Positions 13,241-58,536 of a stretch of 64,000 nucleotides of DNA are shown here, in pieces; positions within the stretch are counted from its first letter, which is position 1; each line of letters opens with the position of its first letter. The notes beneath the pieces are model-generated. The model did not search any database, was not told the origin of the DNA, and saw only the letters and a list, made by a program, of their open reading frames with translations. A program made the position numbers and the translations under genes. This DNA comes from Actinomycetes bacterium. GTDB taxonomy: Bacteria; Actinomycetota; Acidimicrobiia; Acidimicrobiales; JAJZXF01. The stretch is from NCBI GenBank assembly GCA_021802485.1, contig JAJZXF010000003.1, forward strand, positions 1,636 to 65,635. Direction: 5' to 3'.

Positions 13241-15657
13241 CTAGCCCCACTGCTCAGCAAGGGTCTGGCTGATGCCCGAGGCGCTCATCTCGAATCCTGT
13301 TGCGAGGCAGCTGGCAGAAGAAGCACACGTCACGCCGTTGAGGGCGTTCATCGTAGAACTCGGGTTCGGGGTCGTCGGGATTGACCAAGAAGTTCCGTTC
13401 CGGGACTCCGCGAGGGTCTCTGTCGCGCCCGATGAGTCGACGTAGCCACCGACTGTCATACACGAACTCGACGACGAACACGAGACGCCATAGAGGAAGT
13501 TGTTCAGTGACGTAGAGGTGTTTGGACTTGTCTGGGTGACCCACGATGTGCCGTTCCAGTACTCGATGAGGGTCTGGTAGACACCTGAGGAGTCGATGTA
13601 GTCACCGACTGCTTCGCAGGAAGTCGATGACGCACATGAGACGCCGTAGAGGAAGTTGTCCTGTGACGTGGAGGTGTTTGGACTTGTCTGGATAACCCAC
13701 GATGTGCCGTTCCAGTACTCGACGAGGGTCTGTGGGGCACCTGAGGAGTTGATGTAGAAGCCCGTTGCTACACACGAGCTCGACGAGACACACGAGATGC
13801 CGTTGAGGTAGTTAGCAGAAGTGCTTGGATTCTGGCTTGTCATGGTGGACCATGATGTGCCGTTCCAGATCTCCGCGAGGGTCTCAACCGGCTGCTGGGT
13901 CCCGCTCGTGGTGGGTGCTGCCTGGGAGTCACCGACCGCTATGCAAGAAGTGCTCGACACACAGTCGACCCCCATCAACTGATTGAGCGAGGATGGAGAC
14001 GTGTCGGGATTCGGGCTGTTGACGATGGACCAGTTGCTACCGTTGTACTGCTCTATCAGGGTGTAGTCGGCGAAGCCGGTTGTGCTGAACTGGTTCGAAG
14101 GTACGTTGAAGTACGCACCTGCTGCAACACAGAAGCTAGAAGACACACACGATACTCCGTTGAGCGAGTTGTCGACTGGGGGGGTGCCATTACTCAGGCT
14201 TGTGTTATTCGGACTTGTGACTATTGACCACGTGAAGGTGCTCGAGTTCCAGGACTCAACGAGGGTCTGGAGGTAGCTGAAGTGGCCAACCACGTCGCAG
14301 CTCGTAGAGGTGGTACACGATATCGCTCTCAACTGGTCACTAAAGGATCCCTGAGACTCCGTCGTCCCATTTGCGCTTGTGGAAATAGCGAACCCGCTGT
14401 TGTTGCCGGACTCGACGATGGTCTGGTAGTCGTACCCTGGCTGAAACGATCCGTCCGCGTAGCACGAAGTCGAAGATGAACACGAGATGCCGTAGAGGTA
14501 GTTGTTCGCAGGCGCTGTGCTAGACGGCCCACCGCCCCCGTTCACGCCACCGCTCTCGTTCCCGCTGGAGATGACACTAGCGTTGTTGGCGCATGTACCG
14601 GATAGACACCAATAGTCCACCAGGGTCTGGTCAACGCCCAGACTCGTGTCGTAGTAGTAACCAGCTGCATAGCAGCCGTCACTTGAAGGACACGAGATGC
14701 CATACAGGTAGTTGTTTCCAGAGCCCACGTTCCCAGCTAGTGACCCACCGACAGCCCACTTGGTGGGAGATCCGGCCTCATATAGAAAAAGCACCTGGTC
14801 CACACCGGAGGAGTCCACGTAGTAACCGGCCGCGAAGCACTCGTTCGATGACACACAAGACACTCCATAGAGGTAGTTGTTGCCGTTGTTGGCATTACTC
14901 GAAGTCGCCACGGTCCAGCTGGTGCCATTCCAGTAGTCGATGAGTGTTTGGGCGAGGCCTGAGGAGTTGACGTAGTAACCCGCTGCGTAGCACTCGGTTG
15001 ATGACACACAGGTTGCGCTGTTCAGGTAGTTGCTCTCCGACGTGGAGGTGTTCGGACTCGACTGGATCGACACCGTTGGGGGTGAGGTTGAGCCGTTGTA
15101 CTGCTCGATGAGGGTCTGGTAGACCCCGGAAGAGTCCACGTAGTCACCTACTGCTGTACACGAAGTCGATGACGTACACGAGACGCCGTTCAGGTAGTTG
15201 CTCTCCGATGTGGAGGTGTTCGGACTCGACTGGATGATGGACCACGAAGTCCCGTTGTACTGCTCGATGAGGGTCTGGTAGACACCTGAAGAGTCCACGT
15301 AGTCACCTACTGCTATGCAGGAAGTCGATGACGTGCAAGAGACGCCGTTCAGGTAGTTGTTCTGGTTCGTACCGTTGTTCTGACTTGAGTCTTGGGCCCA
15401 GGTGGGTGGCCCTCCGGAGGTGCCGGGGGACTCGGTGGCTGCAAGGGTGGCTTTCACAGCGAAGTTGCCTGCTGAAAAACATGTAGAGCCTGAACAACTC
15501 GTGCTATAAAGAGCATTGTCTTGCGTTGCGCTAGAGTTCGCGCTCGTTACGCTGGACCAGCTCGGAGATGTTGCTGATGCACCCCCCCCAGAGTGAGAAG
15601 TGCGCTAGCTGCTATCGCAGCTGTCGCTATCGAACGTGGGAATGCCCTTTTTCGCAT
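13241..15657 (-). pseudogene. Secreted Cys-pair repeat protein split by a frameshift at a G8 tract (pseudogene, phase-OFF allele or assembly error)
   Basis: ORF 13241..15457 (738 aa) has about 14 WNGTSW...SPN...N.L.GVSC.S.T.C.AVG.Y repeats but no signal peptide. The same frame stays open upstream to 15604 and encodes another repeat. A 35-codon ORF from the ATG at 15657 (AAGAGG 8 nt upstream) encodes MRKRAFPRSIATAAIAASALLTLGG, a typical signal peptide. It leaves frame at G8 (C8 on plus, 15582-15589). One extra G would fuse both parts into an 805-aa precursor. Confidence 0.75.
15582..15589 (-). repeat. Homopolymeric G8 tract (C8 on plus strand) at the signal-peptide/mature-domain junction
   Basis: Read directly: a-cccccccc-a at 15581-15590. 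Frame analysis is given in the previous feature. Confidence 0.95.
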
Positions 15658-27484: not shown

Positions 27485-30409
27485 TCAAAATTGAACGGTA
27501 TTGCTCGTTGCGCTCTTCCCGCCAGCAGACACGACAAGATATACCTTCACGCCAATCGCAGCGCAGCCGTCCTCGGGATGCCCAGTGGGCGGTGCCCAAC
27601 TGGCAGATCCGCTGGCGTTCGTAGAGTACCAAGCTGAAAAGCCCCCAGACCCTGGATTGACCCAAAACTGACTGGGATCGTAACAGGTGAATGTGATGGA
27701 CGAATTGGCTGGGAAGTGTGACACGACCACGTTGACCCAGTGGCATCCAGAACACCCCGGCATTGTTGAGCCATTGGAGTCGGTAGTGCTGTTGCCAACG
27801 CTGATAGTCACAGAGGGAGCAGGGGGGCATGCAGCCGTCGTCGCGCTAGCGCTCCCCGGAGCACTGGAATTGCCACCAGCATTCACAGCCACGACGGAGA
27901 GTGAGTGGCTCTGAGAACAGCTGAAGGTCTGTGTATATGAGTTGCCAACAACCGAACTCGCACCGCCTCCATCAACTGAGACGTTGTAGCTCGTGATCGA
28001 GCTTCCAGGATCGCTCGGAGTGGTCCATGTCCACGTGATCGAGTTGCCGTTTGCTGACGCAGCCACGACCGGAGTGCCCGGCGCTCCAAATGGTGTCGCT
28101 GGAGCAGCTGACGGCACCTGTGACGCGGGTGTGCACCCGAGCACATTGCAGGCTGCGACGCTCACTGTGTAGGCAGTGCCGTTCGTCAATCCTGACAGAC
28201 TCGCGGAGTAGCTCGATTGTCCTGTTGCCGCGGCGATCGTTGTGGTTGCGATAGTCGCCGGGCTGATCGAGACCTTGAAGCTAGTGACGTCGCTCCCCCC
28301 TGAACATGTTGGATCGCTTGGATTGCACGTCCATCCTACGCTGAGCTGCCCTGATCCGTTTGGCGTAGCGGTCAATCCTGTGACCGCGCCCGGTGGCTCC
28401 TGAGCGGTAACCGGATTCGACGCGTTTGACGGAAGGCTCGTCTTGTTGAGGTTGTTATCGGAGACAACGCTGAACGTATAGGTCTGGCCGAGCTGTATGC
28501 TTCCATTTTGAGAACTCACCTTGACCTGAGTCGAGGAGCCGGAGACCTTCACGTTCGCTGCCCCAGTAGCTCCAGTTCCCGACGTCGCGGCACCAGTATC
28601 GGTTATCAGCACTTCATAGGCCGTGATCCGATGCCCCTGACCATTAGCCGGATTCCAGCTGACGCTGATCGTGCCGTCATTATTAGACGACGCCGTCACC
28701 TGCGTGGGTGCGCTCGGCACTGCACTTGACGGTGTCGCATTGACCGCAGTAGACGCAGCGCTCGTGCCGACCGAGTTGGATGCAGCGACTGTAAATGCAT
28801 ACTTCGTGCCGTTGGTAAGCCCCTTCACGGTAAACGGGCTCGACCGCACCACCTTGGTCCCACTCGACCCATTGCCCGAAACGACTTTCCATACGACTGG
28901 ATAGCCGGTGATGGGGCTGCCACCGTTCGCAGAACCAGACCACGACAACGTGACGGCACGGTTACCAGCGAACGCAGTAACACTGGTCGGGGCAGTCGGG
29001 GCCTTTGGCGGCACGATCACGGTTGATGTCGGCGCTGGGGCAACACGCGTTGGAGCTGGGTTCGTGGGGTTCGCTGGAGTCGGAGCTGGCGGCGGGGGGG
29101 GTGGAGGTGGCAGTGTGATCCGCGGCGGGACGACGTTGGATATTGCAGCCGGATTGCCCTTATTGATCTCGTGGACGGCGCCTGTCGGGTTAACGACGAT
29201 TGCGTTGTTCCCGTCTGGCTGGTTCACCCATAGGTAGCCACCCTGCAGCGAGATGTGGATCGGGCCGTGTTTCCAGGGGAGGCCGATGGGAGCTGACGCC
29301 ACGTTCCCCTGGTCATCGAGGACTACGAGCTTGTGTCTGGTGAGATCGGGGACATAAACCCTCCCGTTGTAGACCTGCGGAGTGCCAAGGAGATCCTGGG
29401 GCCCGATTCCTGGAGGCTGGATCGGCGAGCTGACAGACGATACGGTCGCATTCCCCGACAGGTGAACGAGCACGACCTGGCCACTTCCCGACTCCGCTAC
29501 CGGAACAGTGCTGCCGGTCACAATCTTCGGGATTAGAACAGACTGAGCGGACTGCCTGGAAAGAGATGGGATGTGCGCAAGCGAACCGCGCGCGCCACCA
29601 GGTGCTGTGATGAACGTCCCGTTGTGGAGATCCAAAACAGCTGGCGAGTTGTCCACAAGCGAGATCGCAAGCTGCGCAGCGGCGGTCTTACGCGGCACTA
29701 CCCGGCCGCCCTTGCCAGTTCGAAGATGGCCCGAAGATACGGTTGCTGAGACCAATGACCCAGTCGCGGCGTCCACCACCCATAGTCGGCCCGTGGAACT
29801 CACGACGCCAGCAGTGAGAGTGCCATGGATATCGGTCCTCCCCAATACCCTCGTAGAGACAGGGTCAAGAGCCTCGATGGTACCCTCCTTGCGGTGGATG
29901 ATGAACACCGCGTTGGAGGCGTCTTCGACGTCGACGTTCCTTGATCGAGCGTTGCCCGCAACCCGGCGGTTGTCTTCAATCTTGAAAGCGCTCAGATTCA
30001 AGCTGCCAACGGTCCCTGCCGTCCGATCCCACAATACAGCGTTTTCCCCGGCCTGGAGGACCTCGAGGCGATGTCCCTTGGCCCCTTTGACAAGGAGCTC
30101 GAGATCAACCTTGCTAGTGGAGCCATTCGCCAGGAGAATTGCGCCGTTGCTGCTATTGCTCAACCAGCCATGTCCATCGAGGAGATTCAAAAGACTAGCG
30201 TGCTGGGCGGTCCCGAGAGCAGCAGCGAGCGTCGCTGCAAGCATGGCAACCACTACACCGAGCGCTATGAACGCATGTGAACCGCGCCTATCGGTCCGCC
30301 TTGCCAGGACTTCGGCAAGCGTGTTCCGCAACTGCACAAGTCTCCTCATCGAGTCGCGCTCACCATCGACACTCCCCATCGAGCCCCATCTCACGGACAC
30401 CACCGCCAC
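27485..30409 (-). CDS. Membrane-anchored surface protein with poly-Pro linker and multiple fibronectin type III-like domains
   Basis: 974-aa ORF with a single TM (FIALGVVVAMLAATLAAAL). An N-terminal region of about 400 aa is followed by PPPPPPPPAPTPANPTNP. At least 5 FN3-like units (e.g. PTSVTAFAGNRAVTLSWSGSANGGSPITGYPVVW) and a Cys-rich C-terminal domain follow. First gene of the MoxR/DUF58/TGase string. Confidence 0.8.
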   Translation of the reverse strand: MAVVSVRWGSMGSVDGERDSMRRLVQLRNTLAEVLARRTDRRGSHAFIALGVVVAMLAATLAAALGTAQHASLLNLLDGHGWLSNSSNGAILLANGSTSKVDLELLVKGAKGHRLEVLQAGENAVLWDRTAGTVGSLNLSAFKIEDNRRVAGNARSRNVDVEDASNAVFIIHRKEGTIEALDPVSTRVLGRTDIHGTLTAGVVSSTGRLWVVDAATGSLVSATVSSGHLRTGKGGRVVPRKTAAAQLAISLVDNSPAVLDLHNGTFITAPGGARGSLAHIPSLSRQSAQSVLIPKIVTGSTVPVAESGSGQVVLVHLSGNATVSSVSSPIQPPGIGPQDLLGTPQVYNGRVYVPDLTRHKLVVLDDQGNVASAPIGLPWKHGPIHISLQGGYLWVNQPDGNNAIVVNPTGAVHEINKGNPAAISNVVPPRITLPPPPPPPPAPTPANPTNPAPTRVAPAPTSTVIVPPKAPTAPTSVTAFAGNRAVTLSWSGSANGGSPITGYPVVWKVVSGNGSSGTKVVRSSPFTVKGLTNGTKYAFTVAASNSVGTSAASTAVNATPSSAVPSAPTQVTASSNNDGTISVSWNPANGQGHRITAYEVLITDTGAATSGTGATGAANVKVSGSSTQVKVSSQNGSIQLGQTYTFSVVSDNNLNKTSLPSNASNPVTAQEPPGAVTGLTATPNGSGQLSVGWTCNPSDPTCSGGSDVTSFKVSISPATIATTTIAAATGQSSYSASLSGLTNGTAYTVSVAACNVLGCTPASQVPSAAPATPFGAPGTPVVAASANGNSITWTWTTPSDPGSSITSYNVSVDGGGASSVVGNSYTQTFSCSQSHSLSVVAVNAGGNSSAPGSASATTAACPPAPSVTISVGNSTTDSNGSTMPGCSGCHWVNVVVSHFPANSSITFTCYDPSQFWVNPGSGGFSAWYSTNASGSASWAPPTGHPEDGCAAIGVKVYLVVSAGGKSATSNTVQF

Positions 30410-42588: not shown

Positions 42589-43458
42589 TCACACGGCAAT
42601 CCCGACGGCAAGCAACACCGCAAAAACCAGCGCAAGTACTCCCCCCCCGCCTAGGACCCCCACGAGATCGAGCCCCGATACGCCCCGTAGGACCTTCAGG
42701 ACGAGCGACACCGCAAGAGGCAGAGCAATCAACGCCACTGCTGCCCACGGCCTCACCCATGCCACCGGGCCAACGAGCGCAAATGGTGCAAGCACCACGA
42801 AAGCGTAAGAAACCCTCGTCGCCCGCGGCCCCATCCTGACCGCAAGCGTCTTCTTGCCAGCAAGCGCGTCCCCTTCGATGTCGCGCAGGTTGTTCGCCAC
42901 CAGCAGCCCAACTGCCAACAGCCCAACAGGGACCGCGGCGGCTACTGCGAGAGCCGTCAGCTTAAGCGTCTGCACGTAAGCGGTGCCGATCACCGCCACC
43001 AGCCCGAAGAAAACGAACACGAACACCTCTCCCCAGCCTGCGTACCCGTACGGGCGCGGGCCGCCAGTGTAGAGCCACCCCGCGGCGATACACGCTGCCC
43101 CAAGCACAATGAGTTGAGGGCCCACCGCAGCCGCAAGAGCGAGGCCTGCAATCCCTGCGACCGCGAAGCTCACGCCAGCGGCTGCAAGCACTGCCTTGGG
43201 CCGGGCAGCACCGGAAGCCACAAGACGCTGGGGGCCAACGCGCTCAGCATCCGCTCCGCGGACCCCGTCAGAATAGTCATTTGCGTAGTTCGTCGCTACC
43301 TGCAGAGCCCCGGCAACCACGAGGCAAGCGCCCGCCCGCCACCAGATCACCCCGCCCGAGACGCTAGCGACCGCGGTCCCGACGAGCACAGGCGACACCG
43401 CTGCAGGCAGCGTACGCGGCCTAGCCCCCCGGACCCACGCTCCAAACCCTGCGCCCAC
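42589..43458 (-). CDS. menA: 1,4-dihydroxy-2-naphthoate polyprenyltransferase
   Basis: ORF 42589..43527. Preferred GTG at 43458, downstream of the menB stop. UbiA-family motif NYANDYSDGVRGAD, multiple TM segments, men context. Confidence 0.85.
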   Translation of the reverse strand: MGAGFGAWVRGARPRTLPAAVSPVLVGTAVASVSGGVIWWRAGACLVVAGALQVATNYANDYSDGVRGADAERVGPQRLVASGAARPKAVLAAAGVSFAVAGIAGLALAAAVGPQLIVLGAACIAAGWLYTGGPRPYGYAGWGEVFVFVFFGLVAVIGTAYVQTLKLTALAVAAAVPVGLLAVGLLVANNLRDIEGDALAGKKTLAVRMGPRATRVSYAFVVLAPFALVGPVAWVRPWAAVALIALPLAVSLVLKVLRGVSGLDLVGVLGGGGVLALVFAVLLAVGIAV

Positions 43459-48801: not shown

Positions 48802-49422
48802 TCAGCTTGTGGCCATACCAACTATTGGCTTGTTCAAGTGCTTTGCACCCATTGAGCCGTAGAACTTCGCGTCACCGAAGCTGAAGATTCCGCCGTCTGA
48901 TGCTACGAACCAGTAACCCTTGCCATCTGGGGTTGCAGCCATACCAACTATTGGCTTGTTCAAGTGCTTTGCACCCATTGAGCCGTAGAACTTCGCATTG
49001 CCGAAGCTGAAGATTCCGCCGTCTGAGGCTACGAACCAGTAGCCCTTGCCGTCTGGCGTAGCTGCCATGCCAACTATTGGCTTGTTCAAGTGCTTCGCAC
49101 CCATAGAGCCGTAGAACTTCGCGTCACCGAATGAGAAGATTCCGCCATCTGACGCTACGAACCAGTATCCCTTGCCATCTGGCGTAGCAGCCATGCCAAC
49201 TATTGGCTTGTTTAGGTGCTTTGCACCCATCGAGCCGCAGAACTTCGCATCACCGAATGAGAAGATTCCGCCATCTGAGGCGACGAACCAGTAACCTTTG
49301 CCATCTGGGGTAGCAGCCATACCGACAATTGGAGCGTTCAAGTGCTTTGCACCCATAGAGCCGTAGAAGTTCGCGTCACCGAAGCTGAAGATTCCGCCGT
49401 CTGACGCTACGAACCAGTAGCC
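48802..49422 (-). repeat. 5 x 126-nt near-identical coding tandem repeat
   Basis: Period measured from CCATACCAACTATTGGC at 48813 and 48939. The unit encodes GYWFVASDGGIFSFGDAKFYGSMGAKHLNKPIVGMAATPDGK. Confidence 0.9.
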
Positions 49423-50673
49423 AATCCCAGAAGGCGACATTGGCGAGGTGCTATAAGCAAGGATCAGGTTCTGGTATACGGATGCGCTCTTGTATGAACC
49501 TGTAGCCACGCAGAAACTCGAGCCTACGCATGAGACTGAACTGAGATAGTTTGTCTTGGTCGAAGAGGTAGACAACGATGCTGCAGAGTCTAGAGACCAG
49601 GCGCTCCCGTTCCAGGTGAGGACCAGGTTCTGAGCGTAACCAGCGGCATCGATATATTTCCCACCTGCTACACAAAAACTCTGGCTCGTACACGAAACCG
49701 ATCTGAGAGCATCAGCACTACTCCCGGGAGCTGGAAGCGATGCTTGGGTATCCACGGACCATTTGCTCCCGTTCCAGGTGAGGACCAGGTTCTTATCAGT
49801 AGTTCCGTTGTAGAAGACCCCCGCCGCTACGCAAAAACTCGCACTCGCACACGAAACAGACTTCAGTTCATTGAACTGCGACGCCGATGTCGAAAGAGAC
49901 GAAGCGGCATCGAGTGTCCAGGTGTTCCCATTCCAGGTGAGGAGGAGGTTCTGGGACTCTTTGCCTGGACTATAATAACCTGCTGCAACACAGAAACTCG
50001 CACTCGTGCATGATATTGACGTGAACCCGCCTGGCTGGCCCGTGGGGGTAGACAGCGACGCTGCGGTGTCGAGTTTCCATGTACTTCCATTCCAGATGAG
50101 GAGAGTAGTCTGCGGATTACCACTCCCGTTGATGTAGACACCCACCGCAACACAGAAGCTCACACTCACGCACGAGATGGAGGCCAGCACGTTGTCCTGG
50201 GTTGCGGAGGTGGACAACGACGCGGCGGTGTCGAGTGTCCAAGTGCTCCCATTCCAGGCGAGGAGGAGGTTCTGAGCGTTTCCGCTCCCGTTGATGTAAT
50301 ACCCGGTCGCTACGCAGAAGCTCACACTTGAACACGATACCGACATGAGGAAACTCGCAGCTGTAGACAATGATGGCGAAGGGTCGAGAAGCCATCTAGT
50401 CCCGTTCCAAACAAGGACCATGTCCTGTGGATGACTGCTCGCATTCGAATAGAATCCTGCCGCGACGCAGAACTTCTCGCTCACACACGATACGGATTCC
50501 AGTGCATTCAACTGCGTTGCAGATACGGACAATGACGACGAGGCGTCGAGAGACCACGTAGGCGCCAGCGATGCAGCAGATGCTTGAGGCGTCGAAAGCA
50601 TCGTAAGTGATCCAACAAGCAGCGCTGTCATCACGGCACCAACAGCTCCTGCTCTACAGATACGCGAAGACAC
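48802..50673 (-). CDS. Secreted two-module repeat protein, paralog B (7 Cys-pair repeats + 5 GYWFVASDGG repeats)
   Basis: ORF 48802..50970. Preferred GTG at 50673, 7 nt after GGGAGGAG (rc of 50681-50688), giving the signal peptide MSSRICRAGAVGAVMTALLVGSLTMLSTPQASA. Repeats follow as listed. Confidence 0.85.
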   Translation of the reverse strand: MSSRICRAGAVGAVMTALLVGSLTMLSTPQASAASLAPTWSLDASSSLSVSATQLNALESVSCVSEKFCVAAGFYSNASSHPQDMVLVWNGTRWLLDPSPSLSTAASFLMSVSCSSVSFCVATGYYINGSGNAQNLLLAWNGSTWTLDTAASLSTSATQDNVLASISCVSVSFCVAVGVYINGSGNPQTTLLIWNGSTWKLDTAASLSTPTGQPGGFTSISCTSASFCVAAGYYSPGKESQNLLLTWNGNTWTLDAASSLSTSASQFNELKSVSCASASFCVAAGVFYNGTTDKNLVLTWNGSKWSVDTQASLPAPGSSADALRSVSCTSQSFCVAGGKYIDAAGYAQNLVLTWNGSAWSLDSAASLSTSSTKTNYLSSVSCVGSSFCVATGSYKSASVYQNLILAYSTSPMSPSGIGYWFVASDGGIFSFGDANFYGSMGAKHLNAPIVGMAATPDGKGYWFVASDGGIFSFGDAKFCGSMGAKHLNKPIVGMAATPDGKGYWFVASDGGIFSFGDAKFYGSMGAKHLNKPIVGMAATPDGKGYWFVASDGGIFSFGNAKFYGSMGAKHLNKPIVGMAATPDGKGYWFVASDGGIFSFGDAKFYGSMGAKHLNKPIVGMATS

Positions 50674-50764
50674 GTTCAAGCTCCTCCCATTTCTCCATTT
50701 CTCAATCCCGGTATACGACGCAGAAGTGCAGCGCACACCCCATATCCAAATACCATCTCCATCC

Positions 50765-51367
50765 TCAACTATTTGGCCACCCCGGCGTCCAACCTGACCG
50801 CGGGGCATTGCTCGCTTTGCACACCGACGCGCTGGAGGCCTGATACTCATATCCAATGCGCAGGTGCTCCTTGCGAGCAATAGACCTGTCCCCCACCGTC
50901 TGGCGTTCATACCAGCAGTTCTTACCCACACCCTTAGAGGCCACGATGATCTCCTGGCAGGCATTTCCATCAGCGCAGAGGTCGACTGAGACTATTGCAA
51001 TCATCCCGGGTGTGCGCACTCCCTTTCGCTTGACGGACCCGAAATACGAGGATCTGACAACGGCACCTGTTGTCACACTAACCTTCGCGTATCCGCCAAG
51101 GTACGGATTGGTAACGTACGCGACGATCGCATGTAGGGTGACCCCTCTGTAGGACGTGGCGGTGTGGCCTCCGGCGAGTGAGTAAGCAGCATCTGCAACC
51201 GTTTTGTTGCTACCCTGGGCATAGTTGTCAGCAGTGAGCTTCGGGGTCAGATTGCTAGTCCCGAAGAACGTAATCCATGCCAGGGTGCCAAGCAGCGCGA
51301 GGATCACGGCGGCAAGGCCAAGCGAGACCTTGGAGTTCCCCAATACTCGTCTCATGGCACTTAGCAC
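50765..51367 (-). CDS. Membrane-anchored Cys-containing protein, paralog 2
   Basis: 200-aa ORF (GTG at 51367 or ATG at 51355). N-terminal TM: VSLGLAAVILALLGTLAWITFF. Conserved C-terminus: VDLCADGNACQEIIVASKGVGKNCWYERQ ... VCKASNAPRSGW. No family recognised. Confidence 0.7.
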   Translation of the reverse strand: MLSAMRRVLGNSKVSLGLAAVILALLGTLAWITFFGTSNLTPKLTADNYAQGSNKTVADAAYSLAGGHTATSYRGVTLHAIVAYVTNPYLGGYAKVSVTTGAVVRSSYFGSVKRKGVRTPGMIAIVSVDLCADGNACQEIIVASKGVGKNCWYERQTVGDRSIARKEHLRIGYEYQASSASVCKASNAPRSGWTPGWPNS

Positions 51368-51602
51368 CTCAGGAACTCTTCACGATCTTTGAGGCTCGGC
51401 CTCATCGAGCAACATCAACGGTCTCATTATGTCAGCACCCACAAGCCTACGACGGCTCATGAAGTCATCTCTGTAGATAGCAAGCACCAACTAGTCCCAG
51501 CGCCTGCCTGCATGGTAGATGTGGCCGCGCAGGCATCCTTCTTGTTTGATGTAGTGATCAAGGCCACTTTGGACGAAAGGCCATCGGTACTGGTCGCAGA
51601 GC

Positions 51603-52349
51603 TCAGCTTGTGGCCATACCGACGATCGGTTTGTTCAAGTGCTTTGCGCCCATCGAGCCATAGAACTTCGCATCACCAAAGCTGAAGATGCCGCCATCTG
51701 ATGCTACGAACCAGTAACCCTTGCTATCTGGGGTAGCAGCCATGCCGACGATTGGTTTGTTCAAGTGCTTTGCACCCATCGAGCCATAGAACTTCGCATC
51801 ACCAAAGCTGAAGATGCCGCCATCTGAGGCTACGAACCAGTAACCCTTGCCATCTGACGTAGCTGCCATACCGACGATCGGAGCGTTCAAGTGCTTTGCA
51901 CCCATCGAGCCATAGAACTTTGCATCACCGAAGCTGAAGATGCCCCCGTCTGATGCTACGAACCAGTACCCCTTGCCATCTGGGGTAGCAGCCATTCCAA
52001 CGATCGGCTTGTTCAAGTGCTTTGCACCCATGGAACCGTAGAAGTTCGCATCACCGAAGCTGAAGATTCCCCCATCTGATGCCACGAACCAGTAACCCTT
52101 GCCATCTGGCGTAGCTGCCATGCCGACGATCGGTTTGTTCAAGTGCTTTGCGCCCATCGAGCCGTAGAACTTCGCATCACCAAAGCTGAAGATGCCGCCA
52201 TCTGAGGCTACGAACCAGTAACCCTTGCCGTCTGGGGTAGCTGCCATACCGACGATCGGCTTGTTCAAGTGCTTTGCACCCATCGAGCCGTAGAACTTCG
52301 CATCACCGAAGCTGAAGATGCCTCCATCTGATGCTACGAACCAGTAACC
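51603..52349 (-). repeat. 6 x 126-nt near-identical coding tandem repeat
   Basis: Same unit as at 48802-49422, with one more copy. Confidence 0.9.
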
Positions 52350-53612
52350 AATCCCGGGAGGCGACATTGGTGGCGGCATCGGTGAGGTGCCATAGGAAAG
52401 GATCAGGTTCTGGTATATCGATGCGCTCTTGTATGCTCCTGTAGCCACGCAGAAACTCGAGCCTACGCATGAGACGGAACTGAGATAGTTGATCTTGGTC
52501 GAAGAGGTAGACAACGATGCTGCAGAATCGAGCAACCAGGTGCTCCCGTTCCAAGTGAGGACCATGTTCTGGGTCTGACCAGCTGTATCGGTATATTTCC
52601 CACCTGCTACACAAAAACTCTGGCTCGTACACGAAACCGATCTGAGAATATCAGCGCTAGTCCCAGAAGTTGAAAGCGATGCTTGGGCATCCAGGGACCA
52701 CTTGCTTCCGTTCCAGGTGAGGACCAGGTTCTTGTCAGTAGTTCCGTTGTAGAACAGCCCCGCCGCTACGCAAAAACTCGCACTCGCACATGAAACGGAC
52801 TTCAGTTCATTGAACTGTGACGTCGATGTCGAAAGAGACGAAGCGGTATCGAGCGACCAGGTGTTCCCATTCCAGACAAGGAGGAGGTTCTGGGCCATCT
52901 TGTCTGGACTATAGAAACCTGCTGCAACACAAAAACTCGCACTCGTGCAAGATATTGACATGAAGCCGCCTGGCTGGCCCGTGGGGGTAGACAGCGACGC
53001 TGCGGTATCGAGTTTCCATGTACTTCCATTCCAGATGAGGAGAGTAGTCTGCGGATTACCACTCCCGTTGATGTAGACACCCACCGCAACGCAGAAGCTC
53101 ACACTCGCACACGAGATGGAATACAGCATGTTGAACTGGGTTGCGGAGGTGGACAACGACGCAGCGGTGTCAAGTGTCCAAGTGCTCCCATTCCAGGTGA
53201 GGAGGAGGTTCTGAGGGTTTCCGCTCGTGTTCATGTTATACCCAGTCGCTACGCAGAAGTTTACACTTGCACACGATACCGACGTGAGGCCACTCGCAGC
53301 CGTGGACAATGACGGCGAAGAGTCGATAAGCCATCTAGTCCCGTTCCAAACAAGGACCATGTCCTGCGGCCGGCTACTCGGATTCGCATAGTATCCAACC
53401 GCGACGCAGAACTTCTCACTCACACACGATACGGAGCCCAAGCCATTGTCCTGCGTTGCGGATGTGGACAACGACGGCGAGGCGTCGAGAGACCACGTAG
53501 GCGCCAATGAAGAAGCAGATGCTTGAGGTGTCGAAAACATCGTAAGTGATCCAACAAGCAGCGCCGTCATCACGGCACCAACAGCTCCTGCTCTACAGAT
53601 AAGCGAAGACAC
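51603..53612 (-). CDS. Secreted two-module repeat protein, paralog A (7 Cys-pair repeats + 6 GYWFVASDGG repeats)
   Basis: ORF 51603..53921. Preferred GTG at 53612 after GGGAGGAG, as in paralog B. The signal peptide is nearly identical to B. Confidence 0.85.
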   Translation of the reverse strand: MSSLICRAGAVGAVMTALLVGSLTMFSTPQASASSLAPTWSLDASPSLSTSATQDNGLGSVSCVSEKFCVAVGYYANPSSRPQDMVLVWNGTRWLIDSSPSLSTAASGLTSVSCASVNFCVATGYNMNTSGNPQNLLLTWNGSTWTLDTAASLSTSATQFNMLYSISCASVSFCVAVGVYINGSGNPQTTLLIWNGSTWKLDTAASLSTPTGQPGGFMSISCTSASFCVAAGFYSPDKMAQNLLLVWNGNTWSLDTASSLSTSTSQFNELKSVSCASASFCVAAGLFYNGTTDKNLVLTWNGSKWSLDAQASLSTSGTSADILRSVSCTSQSFCVAGGKYTDTAGQTQNMVLTWNGSTWLLDSAASLSTSSTKINYLSSVSCVGSSFCVATGAYKSASIYQNLILSYGTSPMPPPMSPPGIGYWFVASDGGIFSFGDAKFYGSMGAKHLNKPIVGMAATPDGKGYWFVASDGGIFSFGDAKFYGSMGAKHLNKPIVGMAATPDGKGYWFVASDGGIFSFGDANFYGSMGAKHLNKPIVGMAATPDGKGYWFVASDGGIFSFGDAKFYGSMGAKHLNAPIVGMAATSDGKGYWFVASDGGIFSFGDAKFYGSMGAKHLNKPIVGMAATPDSKGYWFVASDGGIFSFGDAKFYGSMGAKHLNKPIVGMATS

Positions 53613-53703
53613 GTTCAAACTCCTCCCATTTCTCCATTTCTCAATCCCGGTATACAACGCAGAAGTGCAGCGCACACCCCATATCCAAATACCATCTCCA
53701 TCC

Positions 53704-54336
53704 TCAACTATTTGGCAACCCCGGTATCCAACCTGACCGCGGGGCATTGCTCGCTTTGCACACCGACACACTGGATGCCTGATACTCATATCCAATGCGC
53801 AAGTGCTCCTTGCGAGCAATAGACCTGTTCCCCACCGCCTGGCGTTCGTACCAGCACTTGTTGCCAACACCCCAGGATGCCACGACAATTTCCTGACATG
53901 CCTTGCCGTCAGCACAAACATCTACTGACACCTCAGACAATAACTTACCCCTCGGGAGCGATAACTGTCCCGGACGTGTAGCGGTAGTTCTTGGTGGTAG
54001 CGCTCGTGGAGCGCTCGTTACTGCCCCGCTGATCATTCTTGGTTTCACTCTATAAGCGAAATACTCGAGTCCGTAAGCATCATCTGTCGCGATGGCATGC
54101 AGTGTGACCCCGTTATAGGATGTCGCATTACGACCTCCAGCAAGTGAATACGCTGCGTTGAGAACCGCAAAGTCGCTCACTTGGGCATAATTGTCAGCAG
54201 TAACATTTAGCGGCAGGTTATGCGTTCCTAGAAACGTGGGCCACACGAGTGCGCCAAGGAGCATCAAGAATGGCACGGCAGCAAGGCCAAGCGAGACCTT
54301 GGAGTTCCTCCGGATTCGTCTCATGACACTTAGCAC
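53704..54336 (-). CDS. Membrane-anchored Cys-containing protein, paralog 1
   Basis: 210-aa ORF. The N-terminal 90 aa and C-terminal 75 aa are close to the 50765..51367 product. The central 50 aa could not be aligned by eye. Confidence 0.7.
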   Translation of the reverse strand: MLSVMRRIRRNSKVSLGLAAVPFLMLLGALVWPTFLGTHNLPLNVTADNYAQVSDFAVLNAAYSLAGGRNATSYNGVTLHAIATDDAYGLEYFAYRVKPRMISGAVTSAPRALPPRTTATRPGQLSLPRGKLLSEVSVDVCADGKACQEIVVASWGVGNKCWYERQAVGNRSIARKEHLRIGYEYQASSVSVCKASNAPRSGWIPGLPNS

Positions 54337-54399: not shown

Positions 54400-55242
54400 C
54401 TAAACGCCCACAAGCTTACGACGGTTCATGAAGTCATCTCTGTAGATAGCAAGCACCAGCTGGTCCCAGCGCCTGCCTGCATGATAGATGTGGCTTCGTA
54501 GGCATCCTTCTTGCTTGATGTAGTGATCAAGGCCGCTTTGGAACTGAGCGAGGTTGAACTCTGGAAGCTCGAGGTAGAGCTTCTCGAAGTCCCAGGTGCC
54601 GAAGACATAGCCGAGGAACAGCACCACAGCTTCAGCACCAGCGCCAGAGCCGATGAGGCGTGGCTCTACGACAGCTGCGAGGTATGCATGCCTGTTCAGC
54701 GGGTTTGCGTTGTAGCCGACCACGAGGCCCACCGGCTCGTTGCTTCGACGACGTGTGACAACGAGTTGCGTGAGCACTCCTGTCTCGAAGGTGCGGATGA
54801 ACTCATCATAAGATGGGACAGCACCTCCGTAGCGCCAGCGCCACGCCACCTCTGTTGAGATCGCTATCTCATAGAGCCTCCCGTAGTGCTCACCTCCCGG
54901 TGGCTTCAGCTCTACAAGGGATCCCCTGAGCCTCAACCCCTCGGGTATGCCTGGATCATCCACGCGATCTCGCTGAACATCAGAGGACCTGGTCAGGTAG
55001 TAGGAGTATAGGCTACGCAGCGTGTCGAGCGCTTCGATGATCTCGAGCTCATCTTCTGGCGCTGATGGCTCACCAACAAGCTCTGAGACCAGCTCAACCG
55101 CAAGCATCATCTGAAGTGAGTCGAAGTCCAGATCCTCCGCGAGGCGGCTGTCAAGGCTCAAAGTCGCTCTGTCGCACAAGTCCATCTCCCTCGCGAAGAG
55201 ATCGATGAACGCCTCTTCATCAAGAAAAGGTGCCATTGGCAT
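54400..55242 (-). CDS. Carrier-protein (ACP/PCP-like) domain fused to GNAT-family acyltransferase
   Basis: 280-aa ORF. The N-terminal 75 aa contain LAEDLDFDSLQMMLAVELVSEL (DSL phosphopantetheine-site pattern). The C-terminal 180 aa look RimJ/RimL-type GNAT (LRLRGSLVELKP ... GSGAGAEAVVLFLGYVFGTWDFEKLYLELPEFN ... EGCLRSHIYHAGRRWDQLVLAIYRDDF). Confidence 0.7.
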   Translation of the reverse strand: MPMAPFLDEEAFIDLFAREMDLCDRATLSLDSRLAEDLDFDSLQMMLAVELVSELVGEPSAPEDELEIIEALDTLRSLYSYYLTRSSDVQRDRVDDPGIPEGLRLRGSLVELKPPGGEHYGRLYEIAISTEVAWRWRYGGAVPSYDEFIRTFETGVLTQLVVTRRRSNEPVGLVVGYNANPLNRHAYLAAVVEPRLIGSGAGAEAVVLFLGYVFGTWDFEKLYLELPEFNLAQFQSGLDHYIKQEGCLRSHIYHAGRRWDQLVLAIYRDDFMNRRKLVGV

Positions 55243-56695
55243 CTACCACGTACGCTGGCACACCCTGATTGTGAGCAGAGATTCCTTGCAGGACAGAGTC
55301 GATCGTTGTATAGCAGCTTCCGTGACCATAACTTGGCTGCGCCAACACCGCACCCACCTTATCCGTCGTATTGTCAATGACTCCCGCCGCCTTCCCCGCA
55401 TTTCCAGGTTTAGGAACATAAACTGCGCCCCCGCTATCTCCCGGGTTTATTGTGAAGCTTGCACAGGCGAGATTTCCAACGAGAGTTCCAAAATATTGCA
55501 TGCCAACCCATACATCTGTTCCAGGCGGCCAGCCGATGGTGCCGCAGGTGATCTCATTAGTTATATAGCCACTAGCGCAAACTGACCGCCCTGCCCATTG
55601 GTCGTTGTTCGACGCCCGCCCAACTACATTATCGATAAAGCCGAAGGTGCCAGCGTCCTTTGTCTCAGCAAGGATTGTGCCCTTTGCCTTGTACGAGGAT
55701 TGGTACGGCTTGGTCAAGACAAACGCGTAGTAATCGCCGCCCGTGCCATAGCTGTATACGCGGGTGCCGATCCCGATCATAGTGCCATTAGTATAATTAA
55801 TCTGGTCCATTGGGTGCGCGCAGTGGCCAGCAGTAACGCCGTAGTATTTGTACGTGTTATAGAAAGGCCCTCGCAATGTGAAACCAGTGGTGCACTGGGC
55901 TGGTCCGTCGTTGAAGGGCTGCATAGGCCCGAGCCCCGCCTTGTAAAAAGGCACTGAGTTCCTGTTGACGCCGGGCAGCAGCCCTGGCCCCCCAGCCGGC
56001 TGGGAAGCAGTGTTGGGGCTTAGAGTTGGCTTCGGTGCGGGACGGATCCACTGCACACGCAGCGCATCCGAGGGGATGAGCTTTTGCAACTCAGCAAGGA
56101 ACCTCACGTCCTGGTGCGTAAGTCCGATACCAACGGAGTTGTCCTTTGTGTCGATATAGAAGATCATCTCGCCGGATGGCCTGTACGCTGGTGTCTTGAA
56201 GTGGCTCGCTACGTAGTCCACGATGGTCTTCTTGTATGCGTCGAGCTGCGCCATTGTGTACTTCACGTAGCTGACCTTGGTCTTCGTGGCAACGCTCAGC
56301 GCCAGGCGACCCTGAAACAGCCTCTCGGTGCTTGCATTTGGAGAACCTGCAACCATGATCCTTGTAACAGGCGACTTGCCCGAGTTGTCTATCCATGCTC
56401 CTGCAAACCGGCTAGCAAAGGTGCGCTTCGCATCGCTCACCACACTTGAGACATGAAGCGCTTCCTGAGCTGCAATGTTCGCAGCCGATCCCGGATTACC
56501 GTGGGGAGATGCGATCGGCGAGGCGAGTTGCGGCAATCGGCTCAGTGTCGAGGTTGTCGTTGCGTTTTCGCCAAGGGTTCCCTGGTTCGTCACACCAACG
56601 ACGCCGATCGCGGCTGCGCCTGCTACACCCGCTGCGCCGTAGACCTGAAGTGTGCGGTACTTCTTCCGGAGTGCCCGCTTCCATGCACGATTCAT
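55220..56695 (-). CDS. Secreted S1-family (alpha-lytic/streptogrisin-like) serine protease with prodomain
   Basis: 491-aa ORF with an N-terminal anchor/signal (VYGAAGVAGAAAIGVVGV) and a prodomain of about 250 aa. Motifs: CTTGF, TAGHC (His) and GDSGGAVY (Ser). Its 3-prime end overlaps the next gene by 23 nt. Confidence 0.85.
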   Translation of the reverse strand: MNRAWKRALRKKYRTLQVYGAAGVAGAAAIGVVGVTNQGTLGENATTTSTLSRLPQLASPIASPHGNPGSAANIAAQEALHVSSVVSDAKRTFASRFAGAWIDNSGKSPVTRIMVAGSPNASTERLFQGRLALSVATKTKVSYVKYTMAQLDAYKKTIVDYVASHFKTPAYRPSGEMIFYIDTKDNSVGIGLTHQDVRFLAELQKLIPSDALRVQWIRPAPKPTLSPNTASQPAGGPGLLPGVNRNSVPFYKAGLGPMQPFNDGPAQCTTGFTLRGPFYNTYKYYGVTAGHCAHPMDQINYTNGTMIGIGTRVYSYGTGGDYYAFVLTKPYQSSYKAKGTILAETKDAGTFGFIDNVVGRASNNDQWAGRSVCASGYITNEITCGTIGWPPGTDVWVGMQYFGTLVGNLACASFTINPGDSGGAVYVPKPGNAGKAAGVIDNTTDKVGAVLAQPSYGHGSCYTTIDSVLQGISAHNQGVPAYVVDANGTFS

Positions 56696-56742
56696 CTTGT
56701 TGTCCGACCCCTTTCATCTTCGCTCTGGCTTCGGCTGCAAGC

Positions 56743-56770
56743 AGGGTACCCCCCCCCAGAAGATTGTCAA
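56743..56770 (-). promoter_or_regulatory. Promoter-like TTGACA-16-TACCCT whose spacer contains a G9 tract
   Basis: Minus strand: TTGACA (56770-56765), ATCTTCT + GGGGGGGGG (C9 on plus, 56749-56757), then TACCCT (56748-56743). It is 48 nt upstream of the protease ATG at 56695. Confidence 0.5.
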
Positions 56771-56931
56771 ATGTGTTCCCGTGGCTCCATCAAGGGATAG
56801 AGAGCGCAAGGCCCAGACCTACTGCTGCACTTTCGAGCGAAACCCCGGCAGAACAGGGATTTTCCCTCGCAGTATCCCAGCTCCACCAGAGCGCGACCTG
56901 GGCGCACTATCCCGACTCGAAAAGTGGACCG

Positions 56932-58536
56932 TTAGGCGGTTTGCACAATGTGGGCTACGTTCACTGGCGCTTGTGCTGATGCGAAGCCAGGAAGGCCTCC
57001 AACAGCGCCAGAGGGCGACCCCGCGGCGCCGGGCCTGTCAGGTTCAAGCGCCGCGATTCGGACCTCTGTGCCAACCAGATCTTCGGACTCCGCATAGGCC
57101 AGGTCGTCAGGATCTTCGAGACGCGCGTAGATACGGCCCTCACTGTTGTCCGGGCCCCCAGACGGCACGTCACACACAAGAACTCCCCAAGCAGGTTCGC
57201 CACTCGACGAGTGCGCAACTGAATAAGCCACTACCCGCGCTCGTTCAGCGCAGGAATCAAGGATTGGCATCTTGCCTACCATGTCCACACGTCTTTGAAC
57301 CGGTGCCAGGTCAGGGCTCTCAAGCGATCCCGGTCCAGGCTCGCTCGACCAGACGCTGAAAGCATGCTTGCTCATGTGCATGCCAACGCCGCTTACGAGG
57401 CCATGCGACCCGGGGTTCTCCCTCAGCACCTCGGCCAATGTTCCAATAGCGTGGCTCACGTAGTTGTGCCCCGGACCGCCATGATAGGCAAGCCCGCCAG
57501 TCAAGGTGATGCTCCTGTCTACCTGCGCACCGAGACCGAGAGATTCCTTGGAAAACTCCACCGCGCTCGCAAAACAGGAGTAGATGTCCATGTACGCGAT
57601 GTCGTCGAGAGCAAGGCCCGACATCCGCAGCGCTTCGGCAGAAGCTTCTCGCATGGCAACTGACTTGGACATGTCGGTCCGCTCCGCTAAGTACCAGGGG
57701 TCCTCAGCATAACTCCATCCCCGCAGGTAGATTCGCCTGTCCAACGGAACCCCGAGCGCATCGGCCTTCTCCGTCGTGGCCATTAGGAAACCCGCCGCCA
57801 TGTCGACATCCATAATCGCGGTTGCGTACTTCGTGTACGGGAAAGCAACCATGCGATTCTGCGGCGACGGCACCGCTATCTCCTCTGGTAAGCGCTCCAG
57901 GCGAAACCAGGCGTCCGGATTGCTAGCAGCGACCTTTGCGAGCGGCGACAGCAGCGCACCAACTGCTTGTCCGCGTTCACTCATCGGCGTCCCGCGACGG
58001 GACCGAAGAGAGCTGTCAAAGACCGCGAAGGTGAGCCACGCGTCGAAGATTCCGTGCGCCACCTCCGAAGGATGCAGTGGCGCTGGAAGGGGGAACGCAG
58101 CCCTGACAGATGGCGGGAAGCTCCAGTTGGGCCTTTCGCCGCGCATTTTGATACGCCGACGCGTTGCAAGCGCCTCGCCGCCCACCACAAGGGCCAGCTC
58201 CATCTCTCCCGCAAGCATCCGCTGAGCAGTCTCGCCCAGGAGGACCTGCGGGGTTGTCCCACCGATGGCTGAGTACACGCGATGGCGCGGATCAGCGCCT
58301 AGACGCTCGGCAAGCCTGCGCGGTGGATCGTCATACTGCCAACCTTGGCAGTAGACGACCTGGATGCTGTCGAGATCCTTCACGCATCCAGGCGCCCCCG
58401 CGTCACAAGCAGCACCTCGTGAAACCTCGTGCCACATCTCGAGCGGCTCCGGCGCACCTTCAGAACCAACGTCGCTCGGATGCCAAGTCTTCCTGGACTG
58501 GCCTATGAGGCATGGGGTTCGAGGATCCACCGTCAT
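56932..58536 (-). CDS. Thiolase-like (acetyl-CoA acetyltransferase / lipid-transfer-protein type) protein
   Basis: 534-aa ORF. The N-terminus MTVDPRTPCLIGQS and overall pattern (IYSCFASAVEF, GGLAYHGGPGHNYVSH) resemble the long actinobacterial thiolase-fold proteins. Active-site residues were not verified. Confidence 0.6.
   Translation of the reverse strand: MTVDPRTPCLIGQSRKTWHPSDVGSEGAPEPLEMWHEVSRGAACDAGAPGCVKDLDSIQVVYCQGWQYDDPPRRLAERLGADPRHRVYSAIGGTTPQVLLGETAQRMLAGEMELALVVGGEALATRRRIKMRGERPNWSFPPSVRAAFPLPAPLHPSEVAHGIFDAWLTFAVFDSSLRSRRGTPMSERGQAVGALLSPLAKVAASNPDAWFRLERLPEEIAVPSPQNRMVAFPYTKYATAIMDVDMAAGFLMATTEKADALGVPLDRRIYLRGWSYAEDPWYLAERTDMSKSVAMREASAEALRMSGLALDDIAYMDIYSCFASAVEFSKESLGLGAQVDRSITLTGGLAYHGGPGHNYVSHAIGTLAEVLRENPGSHGLVSGVGMHMSKHAFSVWSSEPGPGSLESPDLAPVQRRVDMVGKMPILDSCAERARVVAYSVAHSSSGEPAWGVLVCDVPSGGPDNSEGRIYARLEDPDDLAYAESEDLVGTEVRIAALEPDRPGAAGSPSGAVGGLPGFASAQAPVNVAHIVQTA

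Follow-up and report, generated by a model that had tools for sequence, protein, structure and literature searches.

A predicted slippage-prone G tract in the spacer of a probable sigma-70-type promoter upstream of a protease and repeat-protein cassette in an uncultured actinomycete

RESULTS

A G9 tract separates two candidate promoter hexamers upstream of the protease gene

We analyzed a 64,000-nt stretch of genomic DNA from an uncultured actinomycete (hereafter the window; G+C content about 60%), in which the minus strand reads TTGACA-ATCTTCT-G9-TACCCT from 56770 to 56743, upstream of a protease gene. The best explanation for this element, to which we give a probability of about 0.55, is a SigA/sigma-70-type promoter that serves a four-gene cassette and in which a slippage-prone G9 tract determines the length of the spacer.

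As read directly from the window sequence, the putative −35 hexamer TTGACA (56765..56770, minus strand; TTGAC(A/G) is kept in four diverged clades) is followed by the 7-nt, pyrimidine-rich non-repeat part of the spacer, ATCTTCT (56758..56764, minus strand), by the uninterrupted homopolymer tract GGGGGGGGG (56749..56757, minus strand; C9 on the plus strand), and by the putative −10 hexamer TACCCT of the TAnnnT type (56743..56748, minus strand). The spacer between TTGACA and TACCCT is 16 nt in length, of which 9 are G's, and the G at −14 of the candidate promoter comes from the tract. The original prediction had given these coordinates, both hexamers, the tract and the 16-nt spacer, and all of them were exact when re-read on the minus strand.

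Between the −10 hexamer and the start codon lies a predicted leader of about 40 nt (56696..56742, minus strand); the distance from the end of TACCCT to the ATG (56695) of a 491-aa open reading frame (ORF) is 47 nt. The leader carries a conserved motif, TGAAAGGGGTCGGACA (56716-56701, minus strand), which recurs in the related loci L003, L008, and L014 and includes a ribosome-binding candidate, GAAAGGGG (56715-56708, minus strand), preceding the ATG. The gene upstream is on the same strand and has its stop at 56932, 236 nt from the protease gene. On the strand of the protease gene, TACCCT is the sole TAnnnT hexamer in the 270-nt intergenic region, and TTGACA/TACCCT is the sole combination of a −35-like hexamer with a TAnnnT hexamer there.

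Promoters of the actinobacterial housekeeping sigma factor have a TAnnnT −10 hexamer, a −35 hexamer close to TTGACA, and a spacer of 16-18 nt, and they lie shortly upstream of the start codon. The site agrees with this description in its hexamers, its spacer, and its proximity to the start codon. G/C homopolymers are slippage-prone from roughly 7-8 nt upward, and the G9 tract is within this range. As in promoters of the porA type, the repeat is placed between the −35 and −10 hexamers of what would be a sigma-70-type promoter. TTGACA/TACCCT is a probable sigma-70-type promoter with a mutable repeat in the spacer, similar to porA.

Statistics and scans within the window

Under a first-order model of the whole window, about 2.3 G/C runs of at least 8 nt and about 0.6 runs of at least 9 nt are expected, and 5 and 1 were seen, respectively; the tract at 56749-56757 is the sole C/G run of at least 9 nt in the window. 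The pattern TTGACA-N15-19-TAnnnT occurs once in the whole window against 0.69 expected, and 50 of 100 shuffles contain it at least once. TTGACA itself is not enriched, with 22 occurrences in the whole window versus 24.7 expected. Within the window alone, the TTGACA-G9-TACCCT pattern stays within chance. A search of the whole window for the TTGAC...G6 motif found no second copy besides this site. A generic, TATAAT-based sigma-70 scan made no promoter call at 56743-56770, because TACCCT agrees with TATAAT at just 3 of 6 positions.

Such numbers would fit hexamers and a G run that were juxtaposed by chance in a GC-rich intergenic region and did not form a promoter, the operon being served by a start elsewhere or by read-through transcription. 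By chance, one window should hold 0.69 copies of the pattern and about 0.6 runs of at least 9 nt, the −10 hexamer agrees with the consensus at only half of its positions and escapes the scan, and the same-strand gene upstream is only 236 nt away. Terminator-like matches in the window were not above those in shuffles (9 versus 6.5) and are therefore uninformative on operon boundaries.

Other types of control element were also considered. An ECF-type promoter, the consensus of which is GGAAC/CGTT, was dropped upon sequence inspection, as the hexamers are unlike it. A G-quadruplex at 56749-56757 was rejected because just one G run is present. Folding of the 246-nt intergenic and leader region gave nothing unusual (z = +0.64), ruling out a structured leader or attenuator before the protease gene, and an Rfam scan of 56000-57500 returned no match at E ≤ 1.

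The protease gene is the first gene of a four-gene cassette

Gene 1, the 491-aa ORF (55220..56695, minus strand), begins with a charged and hydrophobic N-terminal segment, followed by a pro region and a protease domain. His291, Asp321, and Ser421, which lie in the motifs TAGHC, GGDY, and GDSGG, are invariant in an alignment across 11 homologues. An AlphaFold model of the protein was of moderate confidence (mean pLDDT 60). In Foldseek searches, the C-terminal half of this model matched alpha-lytic protease (2lpr, E = 5e-9, TMt 0.63), and its N-terminal domain matched the alpha-lytic pro region (2pro/3pro/4pro, TMt 0.65-0.75, with 2pro up to 0.75). Both the context of the catalytic triad and the double-barrel fold with its pro region are those of the S1E family, while no sequence profile matched significantly: Pfam gave no match at E < 0.01 (Trypsin, at E = 0.022, was below the gathering score), the NCBIfam model for the Rv1815 serine proteinase scored 20 bits against a cut-off of 175, and a phmmer search of the PDB found nothing relevant. 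Membership in S1E is thus based on motifs and fold, since the sequence profiles of the family match insignificantly. By these features, gene 1 is predicted to encode an alpha-lytic-protease-like (S1E) preproenzyme, and its secretion is suggested by the charged and hydrophobic N-terminus. The S1 protease named in the original prediction can in this way be placed in S1E by triad and fold. The family is rare, with 12 clusters among the 5.8 billion proteins searched.

Gene 2 (54400..55242, minus strand; 280 aa) overlaps gene 1 by 23 nt. Its C-terminus is GNAT-like (Pfam Acetyltransf_3, E = 9e-4), and residues 10-81 at its N-terminus have a weak carrier-protein-like match (NCBIfam AsbD-like, E = 1e-3) with a LAEDLDFDSLQ motif. 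In all related loci this gene comes after the protease gene, often overlapping it, and its product might acylate the protease or the repeat proteins. Gene 3 (53704..54336, minus strand; about 206-210 aa) encodes a protein with a hydrophobic N-terminus that has no family match in Pfam or NCBIfam, and its position in the operon is conserved. Gene 4 (51603..53612, minus strand) encodes, by its sequence motifs, a secreted repeat protein with a signal peptide, containing repeats of the form WNGxxW...SC.S.SFCVA.G and separate C-terminal repeats of roughly 40 aa. A second gene 3/gene 4 pair follows in tandem downstream of the first (50765-51367 and 48802-50970). In nearly all related loci, the genes come in the same order: the protease gene first, then one encoding a GNAT-like protein (about 280-300 aa), one whose product of about 200 aa is hydrophobic at its N-terminus, and one for a large repeat protein that is secreted. 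The stop of the protease gene and the start of the next gene usually overlap.

Several further features of the cassette were noticed. The C-terminal repeats of gene 4 (51603-53921 and 48802-50970) hit models of ribosomal protein L24e in Pfam (E = 8e-9) and NCBIfam (E = 6e-9); these matches are spurious profile artefacts that could mislead automatic annotation. The length and repeat number of gene 4 vary between otherwise near-identical contigs (669/505/523 aa and 476/341/423/394/275 aa; window 48802-53921, L001 9580-11476, L004-L007 from about 9330, and L014-L019 from about 3500). L001, 99.86% identical to the window, ceases to align within the gene 4 repeats, where it runs on into PIN/RHH toxin-antitoxin genes that the window lacks. 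Such differences are either real recombinational variation or repeat mis-assembly. Copies of the cassette often adjoin a phage-type integrase, IS21/Mu-type transposases, or toxin-antitoxin pairs (L009 687-1751; L038 1-2153 and 5450-5692; L001 9682-10963), which fits the different genomic contexts of the cassette.

The putative promoter architecture recurs before homologous operons

We compared the DNA upstream of the protease gene around every retrievable homologue outside P0006. In the window lineage (L001 and L002; protease 100% identical), the element is identical, with G9 and a 16-nt spacer. At 41% protease identity, the P0009 clade (L014-L019 and L022-L029; 11 distinct records) has TTGACA-ACCCCTT-G9-TATCCT, again with a spacer of 16 nt. 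The P0003 clade (L004-L007; 62%) has TTGACG-ACTTCCT-G10-C-TACTCT with a spacer of 18 nt, which becomes 19 nt in L006 through G11, and P0004 (L008; 69%) has TTGACG-AGCCCTT-G6-TACTCT with a spacer of 13 nt. In the P0007 clade (L031-L034; 44%), the slot is filled by a different repeat, TTGACA-CGAGAT-(AG)8-AATC-TACCCA, with (AG)9 in L033. P0002 (L003; 75%) shares G6-TACCCT and the same leader, with unrelated sequence upstream of the run and no good −35 hexamer.

The arrangement TTGAC(A/G)-N7-Gn-TA(C/T)(C/T)CT is therefore found before homologous operons at 41%, 62%, and 69% protease identity. The spacer of the G-run clades invariably contains 7 pyrimidine-rich nt outside the repeat (ACTTCCT, AGCCCTT, ACCCCTT), and the −10 hexamer of related loci is TACCCT, TACTCT, or TATCCT. 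In the window, L003, and L004, the −10 hexamer precedes the start codon by a conserved distance of about 47-55 nt. Over the 60 nt to the left of the −35 hexamer, identity between clades is 15-40%, which is chance level, and the neighbours of the cassette differ, being a thiolase-like gene in the window, an ILVD_EDD dehydratase gene in L004, and another ORF in L019. Because the left flanks are at chance level and the genomic neighbours differ, homology between the loci begins at the −35 hexamer.

It is mainly on account of this cross-clade footprint that we accept the hexamers as a promoter, and we infer from it that the operon actually uses TTGACA/TACCCT. An architecture kept in four diverged clades, in different genomic contexts and between flanks of chance-level identity, argues against an accidental juxtaposition, which we regard as improbable. 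The promoter reading of the original prediction is likewise borne out by hexamers and an intervening repeat that are retained where the flanking sequence is not.

The spacers observed (16, 16, 18, 19, and 13 nt) do not include the canonical 17 nt. In the P0007 clade, whose protease is 54% identical to that of P0009, TACCCA is 26-28 nt from TTGACA. By the sequence, either a different hexamer, GAGAAT at 19/21 nt, must serve as the working −10 there, or the promoter must be off. L008 is the only copy with an unworkable spacer, the 13 nt that go with G6, and its protease gene (467-1979) is split over three reading frames. Because the gene is broken in this way, we read L008 as a locus in decay, probably a degenerating copy of the cassette.

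No promoter repeat of this kind was seen upstream of the P0005, P0008, P0010, P0011, and L021 loci. A scan of genome contigs with a single protein as the query returned nothing, the same scan with an alignment returned just two MAG contigs, one of them without the motif, and a scan of JGI metagenomes returned two loci, which were uninformative. In a neighbour-joining tree, the repeat-bearing clades were not monophyletic and the deep nodes were unsupported, so we claim neither a single origin nor convergence of the repeat.

Some related loci differ in structure around the repeat. Between L003 (1-200) and the window (56696-56760), the leader and the first ~50 codons are nearly identical DNA, and the homology ends exactly at the G6 run; on this alignment, the P0002 protease gene is a mosaic whose breakpoint coincides with the G tract. 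In P0009 (L014/L019, e.g., L019 650-860), the sequence immediately 5' of the promoter is similar to the signal-peptide coding region at the 5' end of the window protease gene, and the conserved leader and its ATG lead into an ORF of just 19 codons, some 90 nt ahead of the true start of the protease. These features suggest that the promoter was once the site of a duplication or recombination, or that a short ORF lies upstream. In L013 (P0008), a G7 run (2992-2998) lies 2 nt before the ATG, in the ribosome-binding position, and an A6 run is present inside the first codons; the G7 run thus puts a homopolymer at a control point in another position.

Tract length differs between assemblies of relatives and is fixed in the window lineage

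All tract lengths reported here were taken from consensus assemblies, which cannot show minority alleles. Over 9,330 nt, G10 versus G11 is all that distinguishes L004 from L006, and further differences start only within the C-terminal repeats of gene 4. In this P0003 clade, three sequences (including L005 and L007, from other assemblies) have G10 and one (L006) has G11. A similar pattern was found in the P0007 clade at about 452-492 of L031-L034. L031 and L033 are identical over 2,516 nt save for one AG unit, (AG)8 versus (AG)9, and the clade contains (AG)8 three times (L031, L032, L034) and (AG)9 once, on contigs from different sequencing runs. If placed at random, a single indel would fall within the repeat with a probability of roughly 1e-3 for L004/L006 and 6e-3 for L031/L033. 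With no other polymorphism over 9.3 kb and 2.5 kb, the repeat would acquire indels faster than the background rate of substitution, and it appears to be a mutational hot spot in two sister clades.

By contrast with these relatives, G9 is present in all three sequences of the window lineage (window, L001, and L002). Aligned to the window, the L001 and L002 contigs show no gaps and have 13 and 41 substitutions, for identities of 99.86% and 98.86%, respectively. G9 is also present in 11 of 11 assemblies of the P0009 clade, the types of which are about 1.6% apart. Judged by consensus sequences, the tract is thus stable in the groups with the most sampling, and either G9, with its 16-nt spacer, is the preferred state where the samples were taken or the instability of the tract is modest. 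The original prediction had pointed out that gain or loss of one G would move the spacer to 17 or 15 nt, a known mechanism of phase or rheostat variation in other bacteria. Mutability of the repeat is supported in relatives, with G10/G11 and (AG)8/9 as sole polymorphisms in two sister clades; the tract is invariant in the window lineage itself and in P0009.

One may ask whether the lengths are real, as a homopolymer length can be an artefact of sequencing or assembly, in which case the true tract would be different or heterogeneous. Errors are common in long G runs, coverage is very low for one related contig (cov 1.43), and the G10/G11 difference rests on one assembly and could be a homopolymer error of sequencing or assembly. 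Against an artefact, G9 is reproduced in two other MAG assemblies of the lineage, which carry SNPs relative to the window and so are not the same contig, and again in the 11 assemblies of P0009. Moreover, the (AG)8/9 difference cannot be a homopolymer sequencing error. We consider an artefact highly improbable.

A more serious alternative is that the promoter is real and the G run, rather than being a switch, serves as an invariable feature of sequence or structure, the differences among clades being slow, ordinary indels. A fixed run might, for example, supply the G at −14, set the rigidity of the spacer, or bind a regulator. The constancy of G9 in 3/3 and 11/11 sequences despite 1-1.6% divergence speaks for this alternative, and so does the sharing of G9 and a 16-nt spacer by two clades whose proteases are just 41% identical. 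A site of specific sequence would not, on the other hand, be swapped for (AG)n or accept spacers from 16 to 19 nt; a sequence-specific role is hard to uphold because the slot occupied by a G run in several clades contains (AG)n in a sister clade. A static run also does not account for two clades in which nothing but the repeat is polymorphic over 9.3 kb and 2.5 kb. In addition, a pure, uninterrupted run without a purifying reason is a prediction of selection for mutability, and a slot in which the type of repeat changes is what selection for a mutable spacer would be expected to give. Overall, we hold a static G run to be rather unlikely, and we prefer a promoter with a slippage-prone spacer.

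A G8 tract places a secreted repeat protein out of frame

A second tract, G8 on the minus strand (15582-15589), lies directly after a signal peptide, MRKRAFPRSIATAAIAASALLTLGG, whose ATG is at 15657. As assembled, the ORF from 15657 to about 15547 stops after 36 aa, with G8 out of frame. G9 or G6 at 15582 would restore 805 or 804 aa, running into a 738-aa ORF (13241-15457), and the repeats of the 805-aa protein are of the type found in gene 4 of the protease operon. The G8 tract has the appearance of a coding homopolymer switch set to OFF, the alternative being a pseudogene or an assembly error. It had been noted earlier as a second G run at a control point, which agrees with an 805-aa secreted repeat protein being put out of frame. 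The sequence suggests that this genome may use G tracts as switches for the gene 4-type protein family. The other 8-nt runs listed in the original prediction (9315-9322, 29094-29101, and 42641-42648) exist, and all three are inside long intact ORFs.

DISCUSSION

A model for length-dependent expression of the cassette

According to the model that we favour, a housekeeping-sigma promoter would drive the whole cassette, comprising the preproenzyme, the GNAT-like protein, a small membrane-anchored protein, and the large secreted repeat proteins. Slipped-strand mispairing during replication would lead to the gain or loss of a G in the G9 tract. Indels are not repaired by the NucS pathway of Actinobacteria, which are without MutS/MutL (PMC8228993), so the products of slippage in G9 would persist. 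Each change of one G would shift the hexamers by 1 bp, or about 34 degrees of twist, relative to each other and thereby alter the contact of RNA polymerase with both. The outcome would be heritable and reversible high, low, or off transcription of the entire cassette. By analogy with known repeats in promoter spacers, changes in tract length would alter expression, and G9, with its 16-nt spacer, may be the expressing state that selection keeps in the window lineage. We presume here that switching is reversible and occurs at a rate high enough to matter.

Repeat-mediated promoter switching is textbook knowledge for host-adapted pathogens (Neisseria, Haemophilus, Mycoplasma). To our knowledge, there are few reports of it from Actinobacteria and next to none from uncultured environmental members. 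The mechanism itself is already known, and what is new here is its probable occurrence in uncultured environmental actinomycetes, in a rare, unannotated cassette, and in a conserved slot with turnover of the repeat type. If the model is true, a slot kept down to 41% protein identity, the turnover of repeat type, and the paralogue with a coding tract together argue for selection on mutability itself, in a free-living lineage without indel-correcting mismatch repair. The rare protease-plus-repeat-protein cassette would then be flagged as a variable secreted system. If the tract is static, the finding shrinks to an ordinary promoter annotation.

A wider picture can be drawn only tentatively. A mobile cassette of a secreted protease and repeat proteins, with a promoter slot for a hypermutable repeat and with paralogues switched by coding G tracts, would constitute a contingency-locus system, such as is familiar in host-adapted pathogens, in uncultured, free-living actinomycetes. 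The slot would hold G runs in some lineages and (AG)n in another, and the coding tracts would switch the repeat-protein paralogues independently. Such a system might have a role against phages, predators, or competitors.

Comparison with known systems

The protease shares with alpha-lytic protease and streptogrisin (MEROPS S1E) the TAGHC, GGDY, and GDSGG motifs, the fold, and the pro region. It differs from them in being very diverged and in always being followed by a GNAT-like gene.

Among promoter repeats, the (TA)n tract of Haemophilus influenzae hifA/hifB lies in the promoter spacer and changes the −35/−10 spacing in steps of 2. It is the closest analogue of the (AG)8/9 repeat of P0007; it differs in its repeat unit, in serving divergent, overlapping promoters, and in belonging to a host-adapted Gram-negative bacterium. 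The poly-C tracts of Neisseria meningitidis fetA and opc are porA-like.

In N. meningitidis porA itself, a poly-G tract lies between −10 and −35, and expression is high with 11G, 2-fold lower with 10G, and 13-fold lower with 9G (PMC3639595). As in the window, a G run of 9-11 nt is found between the −35 and −10 hexamers of a sigma-70-type arrangement, one-base changes alter the spacer, and the product leaves the cytoplasm, as predicted for the window protease. Unlike porA, which belongs to a host-adapted proteobacterium, the tract described here is from an uncultured, free-living actinomycete, of a class without MutS/MutL-type repair. It precedes a multi-gene cassette that it would control and is invariant in the sampled strains of its lineage.

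Homopolymer indels that alter secreted or surface systems have been reported in Actinobacteria, in Mycobacterium tuberculosis espA and in a G tract of the Bifidobacterium breve pilus (PMC10334774, PMC9187656). In M. tuberculosis, homopolymer indels near promoters recur under selection, e.g., in the poly-A upstream of espA (PMC10334774); that tract is outside the core promoter spacer, unlike G9 here. The B. breve tract is coding rather than in a spacer, and its ON/OFF switch resembles the G8 tract at 15582. The HPT_37 tract upstream of PPA1943 in Propionibacterium acnes is C5 or C7 in the promoter spacer, with a 2-fold difference in expression (PMC4746626). HPT_37 shares with the window an actinobacterial host and a C/G tract between −10 and −35. 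The P. acnes tracts are shorter and precede unrelated genes, and neither conservation of the slot across diverged operons nor replacement of the repeat type has been described for them.
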